Shown one piece after another: positions 41,088-43,096 of a stretch of 43,096 nucleotides of DNA (positions are counted from its first letter, which is position 1; each line of letters begins with the position of its first letter). The DNA comes from Escherichia phage SonjaBuckley_Bas74. The notes beneath the pieces are model-generated. The model searched no databases, had not been told where the DNA came from, and saw only the letters and a list, made by a program, of their open reading frames with translations. Position numbers and translations under genes: made by a program. Where the stretch lies: the sequence record PQ850627.1; one strand, 5' to 3'.

Positions 41088-41336
41088 ATGAGTAACGTAC
41101 AGACAATCGCAATAACCGAGGAACTTGAAGCCAAATGTATCGCATGGACTATGGGTAATGACCCGGTTGCTATGCGTAAATTTCCAATGAAAATCACAGA
41201 TACCGAAGCATTCAAAGACGCACAACTGATGGCGCGTATCGCCGTTAGTAACCTGAGCCGCAATATCCCTGCGGATGCGTTCTGGTTCGCGGCTATGCAG
41301 ACACTGAAAGCAGCTTATGCAGGAGAGAAGAAATGA
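41088..41336 (+). CDS. hypothetical protein (82 aa)
   Basis: ATG with GGAGTAGAGAAG leader downstream of TTGACT-N17-TATATA promoter. Confidence 0.5.
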   Translation: MSNVQTIAITEELEAKCIAWTMGNDPVAMRKFPMKITDTEAFKDAQLMARIAVSNLSRNIPADAFWFAAMQTLKAAYAGEKK

Positions 41337-41530
41337 AAGTTAAAGCCGCTAAAATTCTCTGGTTAGCCGCCCTTGACTATGTCACAGAGGGTAAAGTGTA
41401 TGATGTATACAACCCGACAGCTACTGGTTTCGGTTATATAGACTCCGACGACGACTGCCATATTTTCATAGACTTTGGTAACGATGACGGTGATGGTTTC
41501 CACGGCGTTAAATGGGAGGTTGTAGAATGA
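41333..41530 (+). CDS. hypothetical acidic protein (65 aa)
   Basis: ATGA coupling to upstream gene. Confidence 0.45.
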   Translation: MKVKAAKILWLAALDYVTEGKVYDVYNPTATGFGYIDSDDDCHIFIDFGNDDGDGFHGVKWEVVE

Positions 41531-41688
41531 GCGAACAAGGTCAAGTAAGCCAACCATTACGAGTAGGCCGTAAGGTGAGTCACACCCCGTTCCCGACACG
41601 CGAGGAACTGATGAAACGTAACAGTTTCCCTGGGCCGGACAAGAACAAGTATCTCAACCGCATGTGGGGAGAGCGTAAAAATGACTGA
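41527..41688 (+). CDS. hypothetical protein (53 aa)
   Basis: ATGA coupling; uninterrupted frame; under ORF-track cutoff. Confidence 0.35.
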   Translation: MSEQGQVSQPLRVGRKVSHTPFPTREELMKRNSFPGPDKNKYLNRMWGERKND

Positions 41689-41866
41689 CCGTGAATATGA
41701 AAAGATGATGGTAGAGGCCGTTAACGGCGGCGTAGACATTAGCCACGTGATGTGCGTCCTGAATAATAAAATCGCGGTAGCCGAGCAAATGGTGGAGTCG
41801 CTTTATGAGGCGCGCCGCGAACTGATTAACCGCTTCAACCTGAACAAAGGTGACACCAATGCATAA
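41681..41866 (+). CDS. hypothetical protein (61 aa)
   Basis: ATG overlapping upstream gene by 8 nt. Confidence 0.45.
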   Translation: MTDREYEKMMVEAVNGGVDISHVMCVLNNKIAVAEQMVESLYEARRELINRFNLNKGDTNA

Positions 41867-42158
41867 AATCACAATTGCATCGCTCGAGCGCCGTATTATG
41901 GTGCTTGAGTCGGAGAAACAGACGTTAGGCGGGCAACTGTCAATTAACGGTGAGTTTCAACTGGAGGCGTATAAAGAACTTCTAGAGGCGTTTAAAGAGC
42001 TACAAGCCATCGCGTCTGACATAGAAAATATGATTGGATTGTTGCAATCCGGGGAGTGGGCCGAACACTGCACTAAATCGGCGTTAGGAAAACGGCTTGA
42101 GACGGAGATTACTGACATGCTGAGTTGTCTTGTTGAGGCGCCAGATGAGCACGCCTGA
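41859..42158 (+). CDS. hypothetical coiled-coil protein (99 aa)
   Basis: ATG at 41859 with AAAGGTGA SD (ORF-track GTG at 41850). Confidence 0.45.
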   Translation: MHKITIASLERRIMVLESEKQTLGGQLSINGEFQLEAYKELLEAFKELQAIASDIENMIGLLQSGEWAEHCTKSALGKRLETEITDMLSCLVEAPDEHA

Positions 42159-42327
42159 GCCGGTAGTTATCGATGGCGTCCTGTGGAAACCTTACTCGGT
42201 TAACCACATCGACGCCGATGGGAAGAAGTTCAGTTTCTACATTTTTGCGATTAGCCGTGAGCACGCTGCGTGTGTAGTAGACGATATACGAGAAACGGCG
42301 TGGCTTGGCGATGAGATAGTGGGGTGA
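42145..42327 (+). CDS. hypothetical protein (60 aa)
   Basis: ATG overlapping upstream gene end; ORF-track start 42130 lacks an SD. Confidence 0.4.
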   Translation: MSTPEPVVIDGVLWKPYSVNHIDADGKKFSFYIFAISREHAACVVDDIRETAWLGDEIVG

Positions 42328-42331
42328 GAGC

Positions 42332-42415
42332 ATGAGTCTTGAGGTTGTTATAAGTCTGGTTGGTATTAGTTACTTCATTGGGCTATTGGTCGGTTTTCTG
42401 TGGGGTAGATACTAA
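42332..42415 (+). CDS. hydrophobic micropeptide (27 aa, single TMD)
   Basis: ATG after GGGGTGAGAG; sequence MSLEVVISLVGISYFIGLLVGFLWGRY; stop overlaps next start (TAATG). Confidence 0.3.
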   Translation: MSLEVVISLVGISYFIGLLVGFLWGRY

Positions 42416-42585
42416 TGTTCAGCGACATCAACGCAGCAATCGAAGAAGCAATCTGGCGCCGTTACAACGGCGAGCAACAGCGTCACTTCTGCCTGGTGCA
42501 ACGTGGTAACATGGTCGCCGTGGTGCAGGACCGCGATAACAAATATCCGAATGCGATGTGGACAACGAGGAATTTCTTAGGATGA
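42415..42585 (+). CDS. hypothetical protein (56 aa)
   Basis: Translationally coupled on both sides; uninterrupted frame. Confidence 0.35.
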   Translation: MFSDINAAIEEAIWRRYNGEQQRHFCLVQRGNMVAVVQDRDNKYPNAMWTTRNFLG

Positions 42586-42818
42586 TTACCAGCATTCCTA
42601 ACCTGATTAAAGAATTTGGTACGATGGCGGAGACATGCCGACAAACCGGTATCAACGAAATGACGATTGCTAAGTACAGTAAAGACGTTGATTGTGAGCG
42701 CCACGTAATTTATAACAATCGTCTGATGACGCACGTTAAGACTAGCCCGGTGTTATTCACGCGCCGTGGTATCACTAAAACTGAGCAACGTATTGCTAAA
42801 GAGGAGAGTGGAGAATGA
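42582..42818 (+). CDS. hypothetical protein (78 aa; alternative start 42558)
   Basis: ATGA coupling at 42582; same frame as ORF-track start 42558. Confidence 0.4.
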   Translation: MITSIPNLIKEFGTMAETCRQTGINEMTIAKYSKDVDCERHVIYNNRLMTHVKTSPVLFTRRGITKTEQRIAKEESGE

Positions 42819-43000
42819 AAAAGTTAACTATCTACTGGAAAACAGGGGCTACGTCAGAACTCGATGTTTTCAGCGTAACGCAGTGTGAAAAGTTCTGGTA
42901 TGCCGAAACATTCAACGGTGAAGTGAGAATACCAATCGCACTGGTATACGGCGGCGATATAACAGAATACCAATCGCACTGGTATACGGCGGCGATATAA
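42815..43000 (+). CDS. hypothetical protein whose 3' end runs through a 38-bp tandem duplication
   Basis: ATGA coupling; stop codon lies in the second repeat copy; followed by intrinsic terminator. Confidence 0.4.
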   Translation: MKKLTIYWKTGATSELDVFSVTQCEKFWYAETFNGEVRIPIALVYGGDITEYQSHWYTAAI

Positions 43001-43001
43001 C
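42926..43001 (+). repeat. perfect 38-bp tandem duplication (2 copies)
   Basis: AGAATACCAATCGCACTGGTATACGGCGGCGATATAAC at 42926-42963 and again at 42964-43001, followed by partial third start AGAATAA. Confidence 0.9.
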
Positions 43002-43018
43002 AGAATAACCAACCCACA

Positions 43019-43043
43019 AGCCCTCTACGGAGGGCTTTTCTGT
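43019..43043 (+). terminator. intrinsic terminator at right end of window
   Basis: AGCCCTC-TACG-GAGGGCT followed by TTTCTGT. Confidence 0.6.
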
Positions 43044-43096
43044 ACATCCCGCCCAATCCCCTTATATAATCCATTTAGACGCGTAGGGCGCGTCTG

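Follow-up and report, generated by a model that had tools for sequence, protein, structure and literature searches.

A 38-bp tandem duplication, probably microhomology-mediated, at the 3' end of a small gene in one Kagunavirus genome

Microhomology-mediated tandem duplications are common and reversible, and they are the dominant class among tandem duplications, including those found in E. coli and in viruses (PMC8639346; bioRxiv 10.64898/2026.02.28.708716). In the events described by Dan et al. (2021, PMC8639346) and Wei et al. (2026, bioRxiv 10.64898/2026.02.28.708716), a single-copy segment flanked by a short repeat becomes a head-to-tail pair, and the locus presented here shows the same change. 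The likeness extends to the details of the junction: one arm is found there, no filler is present, the periodic run equals twice the unit plus the arm (82 = 76 + 6) and the copies are identical. As in an essential-gene example from that work (PMC8639346), the event is tolerated at the 3' end of a gene. However, the published duplications are subclonal variants in deep sequencing, whereas ours is read from the consensus of one phage genome. The arm is also short and AT-rich, a class reported to duplicate rarely, its chance of duplication being about 1,000-fold lower than that of long GC-rich pairs (PMC8639346). A 6-bp AT-rich arm would be a weak substrate, and this counts against slippage. According to our analysis, the repeat is nevertheless probably a genuine, recent and private microhomology-mediated tandem duplication in one Kagunavirus lineage. 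It would then be a tidy natural case of such an event fixed in a phage genome, although its biological weight is small.

The stretch of DNA analyzed here (the window) is 43,096 bp long, and the repeat, the small gene, the terminator, the promoter-like site and terS all lie on its + strand. Near its right end, the 38-bp unit AGAATACCAATCGCACTGGTATACGGCGGCGATATAAC occurs twice head to tail, at 42926-42963 (copy 1) and 42964-43001 (copy 2), and both direct reading and a script check found the two copies identical base for base. Tandem Repeats Finder places an array with a period of 38 and 2.3 copies at 42926-43012 (score 165). A scan of all 43,096 bases showed that this is the sole perfect tandem with a period of 15-100, and a perfect 38-bp tandem at any of these periods would be expected by chance about 5e-17 times (43,096 x 86 / 4^38). 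The duplication adds 0.09% to the genome. Identity at period 38 does not stop with the second copy but covers 82 bp, from 42926 to 43007, that is 2 x 38 + 6, and the six additional bases are AGAATA.

These six bases open the right-hand microhomology arm at 43002-43013, in which AGAATA is exact at 43002-43007 and the remainder imperfect. The arm, AGAATAACCAAC, resembles the start of the unit, AGAATACCAATC, and the two form an imperfect 12-nt direct repeat. The first-pass annotation had reported the perfect 38-bp tandem at 42926-43001, followed by a partial third start, and an open reading frame that passes through copy 1 in one frame and stops in copy 2. Direct reading, the script and Tandem Repeats Finder bear out the first of these statements, and a TAA at 42998-43000 bears out the last. 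The partial third start is real as well; judged from the alignments described below, it is the ancestral right-hand arm of a short direct repeat that was there before the duplication.

To place the repeat, we compared the window with its relatives. With the last 797 bases as query, 157 phage records matched, almost all of them Kagunavirus (Guernseyvirinae) phages of E. coli or Salmonella, and the best matches are vB_EcoS_XY2 and 590B, both at 99.5%. In all 12 aligned relatives that carry the gene (XY2, 590B, fEg-Eco19, fBC-Eco01, SHAK7693, fFiEco03, 536P11, Bas76, Snoke and three IMG/VR contigs), we found a single copy of the 38-bp unit. Across 41292-43096, two substitutions and a single 38-bp gap are all that separates the window from XY2, and the alignment shows a clean junction at which no bases are inserted or deleted. 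In XY2, 590B, Bas76 and one of the IMG/VR contigs (L026), AGAATA stands on both sides of the single unit, 38 bp apart; there, the unit opens with AGAATACCAATC and AGAATAACCAAC follows 38 bp later.

We then searched for the duplicated state itself with a 60-nt query spanning the junction of copy 1 and copy 2. No INPHARED record contains the junction; the records that match the query do so in two pieces that overlap and together cover 44-49 bp of the record, as expected for a single copy. The junction was likewise not found in IMG/VR, and its matches in GTDB genomes and JGI metagenomes are all chance matches, in unrelated organisms that do not have the unit. At the protein level, no record of the exact 61-aa product was found among 153 billion gene positions. 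The duplication is thus known from one sequence, the genome in the window. One record among the relatives calls for a remark on its label: OR594180.1 (vB_EcoM_SHAK7693; L030 in our set) matches the Kagunavirus region at 92%, while its taxonomy line reads Autographiviridae; Studiervirinae; Kayfunavirus and its name has the myovirus-style "EcoM", and it is probably mislabelled.

The surroundings of the repeat are closely shared with XY2. Seven successive small genes at 41333-42815, immediately 5' of the duplication, encode proteins 100% identical to those of XY2. Elsewhere the genome is mosaic relative to XY2, with differences at the N-terminus of the tape measure protein and a methylase of 60% identity, and several XY2 genes, including those for an HNH endonuclease and a sliding clamp, have no match in the window.

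The periodic run of 2 x 38 + 6, together with the arms found in single-copy relatives, is the signature of a microhomology-mediated tandem duplication. A random tandem duplication gives at least 6 bp of extra periodicity with p ~0.0013. Because the copies show no differences, while the flanks differ from XY2 at a few sites, the event appears to be young. The first-pass annotation had proposed a recent duplication or replication slippage, and the single-copy relatives, the identical copies and the ancestral 6-bp microhomology support this well. Taking all the readings in which the duplication is real together, we consider it quite likely that the phage does carry two copies.

The sequence of events may be pictured as follows. 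In the ancestor, whose state would be kept in XY2, 590B, Bas76 and the IMG/VR contig, AGAATA was present twice, 38 bp apart. During replication, a nascent 3' end that had already copied one AGAATA would have re-annealed to the other, so that the 38 bp between them were copied twice. Should the bottom strand have been the growing one, its end (the complement of AGAATACCAATC) could pair with AGAATAACCAAC at 10 of 12 nt, with one bulge. The change is most likely near-neutral and may have been fixed by a plaque-purification bottleneck or by drift. Direct-repeat pairs of at least 6 bp at spacings of 10-100 number about 1,000 in this genome, all equivalent in this respect, so that the site is not singled out mechanistically and its proximity to the terminase genes is incidental. 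We also considered a hairpin within the unit as the driver of slippage and rejected it: DNA folds of the single unit are ordinary (z from -0.4 to -1.0), and although the duplicated form folds strongly (z = -4.15), this follows from the duplication and is no evidence of its cause.

One of the only two substitutions that separate the window from XY2 in 41292-43096 lies within the unit. At 42947 in copy 1, a G to T change turns GAC into TAC (D45Y), at a position where all 12 aligned relatives have G, and the same T is found at the corresponding position of copy 2, 42985. The presence of T in both copies could mean either that the substitution is older than the duplication or that both copies were built from the same reads. 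Residue 45 varies in the family, where it is D, N or Y, and the D45Y allele recurs in a divergent lineage (P0008, five Logan contigs). We treat D45Y as an ordinary polymorphism that came earlier than the duplication.

A quasi-palindrome template switch was examined as a source of this substitution, since the change of TAGA to TATA creates a complement to the TATA located 9 nt downstream within CTGGTATACGGCGGCGATATAACAG. The change does strengthen a weak inverted repeat, but the idea found no support, as 10.5% of random substitutions in the genome improve a local quasi-palindrome at least equally. The fold energies of the unit DNA also hardly differ between the alleles (-4.1 vs -4.1 and -3.1 vs -2.8 kcal/mol), and the T allele in a divergent lineage weakens the idea further.

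The repeat could instead be an assembly or circularization artefact, another option raised by the first-pass annotation, in which a terminal overlap of the contig (of length k or k-1 from a de Bruijn assembler, or an untrimmed overlap from joining by hand or of fragments) was left in before the genome was closed and rotated to the terminase gene. After assembly the genome was clearly rotated, manually or in a pipeline, so that it begins with terS, the two copies are perfectly identical down to the rare T allele, and the duplication occurs in no other sequence of INPHARED, IMG/VR or the 153 billion gene positions, all of which fits such an artefact. An untrimmed overlap from a de Bruijn graph would likewise appear as a perfect tandem at one place in a rotated circular genome. 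Its length should be k or k-1, and 38 equals 39 - 1, which fits a k = 39 graph with contigs overlapping by k-1. Yet 38 is an unusual overlap for an assembler, and none of the common SPAdes settings (k = 21/33/55/77/99/127) yields it. Moreover, the breakpoint of an overlap artefact should be arbitrary, whereas the observed one coincides with a pre-existing 6-bp direct repeat and so is not arbitrary in sequence; an artefact leaves the microhomology of the relatives unexplained, and the ancestral 6 bp would be a coincidence with p ~0.0013. Elsewhere the assembly is clean and shows no indel or frameshift errors against XY2, whose proteins align to it over their full length in single HSPs, unbroken by frameshifts. 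We therefore regard an assembly artefact as unlikely, though by no means negligible.

The duplication falls within a small gene. An open reading frame of 61 aa at 42815-43000, whose start codon overlaps the stop codon of the upstream NinH-like gene (ATGA), encodes a protein homologous to phrog_22569, a 51-aa Kagunavirus product with no assigned function. In the relatives, the protein reads MKKLT…RIPIALVDGGDITE and has 51 aa. A PHROG profile search assigned the window's product to phrog_22569 (E = 3.7e-19), with residues 1-49 aligned to positions 1-50 of the 52 in the profile, and its identity to the 51-aa homologues is 82-92%. The duplication adds 10 aa, which form a tail outside the profile. 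A Pfam search gave no match for the protein, and an AlphaFold2 model from an alignment of 12 sequences reached a mean pLDDT of 53 and is unusable.

Translation passes through copy 1 in the native frame (…RIPIALVYGGDITE), which gives residues 38-50 and the first base of codon 51. In copy 2 the frame is shifted, and this copy contributes the tail YQSHWYTAAI and a new stop codon, the in-frame TAA at 42998-43000 (GATATAAC of copy 2), one base before the end of that copy. The ancestral TAA of the 51-aa gene is still present at 43006-43008 but is now out of frame. The junction splits the ancestral stop between TA and A and changes TAA to TAC. Because the junction lies within the stop codon, all 51 native positions are kept (with D45Y) and 10 more codons follow before TAA. 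The reading frame is thus extended and not truncated, a point on which the first-pass annotation was silent. That the duplication falls exactly on the stop codon explains why it is tolerated: elsewhere in the gene, an out-of-frame insertion of 38 bp would break the reading frame, while here it adds only a short tail. The 61-aa form should not be taken for the normal form of the family.

Another sequence shows an extension of the same gene by a different route. In the metagenomic relative P0001, the TAA has become TAT, and this stop loss yields a protein of 77 aa, so that an extended version of the phrog_22569 gene exists in another sequence. As in the window, the 51-aa gene loses its TAA and gains a C-terminal tail. 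In contrast, P0001 has a point mutation and no duplication, and its 26 additional codons read through the terminator. This allele (L040:275-508, on the ENA metagenome scaffold MUNK22-1…_11058) runs through the terminator hairpin and the promoter region and ends at a TAG in the terS-leader hairpin just 5' of terS.

What lies between the NinH-like gene and the terminator varies among Kagunaviruses (loci L034, L035, L038 and L039). Some carry the 51-aa phrog_22569 gene there, and others carry unrelated small open reading frames, of 219 and 99 nt in NTEC3, 102 nt in Bas71, 201 nt in ZCEC5 and 183 nt in Golestan. This position looks like a moron-like accessory slot.

A real duplication could also have been kept by selection. 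The tail, perhaps together with D45Y, would alter the activity or the recognition of a small accessory protein, for example in escape from a host defence, and the duplication would act as a reversible switch. The window and XY2 differ at very few places over about 1.8 kb, and two of these lie in the last 17 codons of the gene; D45Y is found again in a divergent lineage; and Kagunaviruses vary in the accessory content of the position that follows the NinH-like gene. All of this agrees with selection. In yeast, tandem duplications of this kind give reversible adaptive phenotypes (PMC8639346). Against it, two changes in one short gene make weak statistics (roughly 4% by estimate), position 45 is variable in the family, and no comparable tail occurs in other isolates save for the one stop-loss variant. 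The protein itself has no Pfam match, its PHROG has no assigned function and its structure model is unusable, which also counts against the idea. We give selection on the tail an outside chance. The more specific proposal, in which the duplication and D45Y together form a selected and quickly reversible C-terminal switch in the moron-like slot, allowing for example escape from a defence that senses the protein or is inhibited by it, has a slimmer one still. If true, microhomology-mediated duplication would serve as a contingency mechanism in a lytic phage.

The first-pass annotation had offered, as one option, that the repeat lies near a physical genome terminus or packaging site. In XY2, 590B and fEg-Eco19, the last bases of the window (…GCGCGTCTG) continue directly into its first, GTGCGCTCTGATGGTCAGACGCAT…, and by this seamless join the right end is an annotation convention and no physical terminus. 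Several BASEL phage records begin at the same base as the window. The window is therefore an entire Kagunavirus genome, circularly permuted, whose opening point was set at an in-frame GTG upstream in the small terminase gene (terS, 1-549).

Base 1 of the window is this GTG, and the true start of terS is probably the ATG at 40. The PHROG terminase match begins at residue 14 of the GTG-initiated product, and 590B annotates terS from the ATG equivalent to window position 40, where a good SD is present. Several deposited relatives also start terS at the upstream in-frame GTG.

Between the repeat and terS, two transcription signals can be recognized. An intrinsic terminator at 43018-43043 has its hairpin at 43018-43037, with an 8-bp stem (AAGCCCUC/GAGGGCUU) and the loop UACG, followed by a U-rich tail. 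Its assignment is based on RNA folds and on the annotated terminator in fBC-Eco01 and Snoke; a simple terminator scan made no call. RNA folds give the same terminator hairpin with one copy of the unit or with two. A sigma-70-like promoter at 43041-43070, ahead of the terminase operon, combines TGTACA, an 18-nt spacer and TATAAT and matches 10 of 12 positions. The terminator, the promoter-like site and the terminase genes are unaltered by the duplication.

Proximity to the terminase genes is also what suggests a packaging repeat, whose copies would mark a physical end (a direct terminal repeat joined head to tail) or a pac or cos element. Position alone favors this: the repeat lies about 95-170 bp 5' of the small terminase gene, and this proximity is the only likeness to the terminal repeats and pac sites of tailed phages. 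Unlike those elements, the repeat is unconserved, lies within a coding sequence whose frame it shifts and is followed by a terminator and a promoter before terS. Relatives with TerS and TerL at 99.5-99.8% aa identity (window vs XY2) have one copy, and no record of a relative ends within the unit. In the family member for which termini were analyzed, fBC-Eco01, PhageTerm gave no obvious or fixed termini (PMC9825357).

The first-pass annotation had linked the repeat to a terminus or a packaging site, with the terminase genes just across the window boundary. The terminase genes are indeed there, but the single copy in the relatives, the conventional nature of the end and the PhageTerm result for fBC-Eco01 speak against the link. 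A link to pac, cos or a terminal repeat is not supported by these comparisons, and we find it scarcely credible that the copies are a packaging element. Repeats near this edge of the window, next to the terminase genes, should not be read as packaging signals. The phage probably packages a permuted genome by the headful mechanism. TerL matches Terminase_6N/6C (Pfam), and in fFiEco03 an HHpred-based annotation describes TerS as P22 gp3-like. Neither TerL nor TerS gave a sequence-level match in PDB, so the headful assignment draws on Pfam, on the HHpred note of this relative and on the published PhageTerm result.

The region that leads into terS has further features of its own. The sequence AATCCCCTT at 43055-43063 is the exact reverse complement of AAGGGGATT at 28-36, the SD region of the likely terS start at 40. 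An RNA fold of 43007-43096 joined to 1-48 is unusually stable (-50.5 kcal/mol, z = -4.0) and pairs 43055-43063 with 28-36. Because this anti-SD precedes the -10 box of the promoter-like site, it would be carried only by read-through transcripts. The fold thus hints that translation of terS may differ between read-through RNA and RNA initiated at the promoter. The anti-SD pairing gains no covariation support from fEg-Eco19, which has AATCACCTT and no compensating change.

Two adjoining hairpins, at 43077-43095 and 3-25, stand before and across the annotated start of terS. The first is AGACGCG-TAGG-GCGCGTCT and the second GCGC-TCTGA-TGG-TCAGA-CGC. Both share GCGTCTG/CAGACGC, and alternative pairings are possible. 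They may represent a regulatory element, a processing site or a candidate packaging recognition site. The region of these hairpins is invariant in XY2, 590B and fEg-Eco19.
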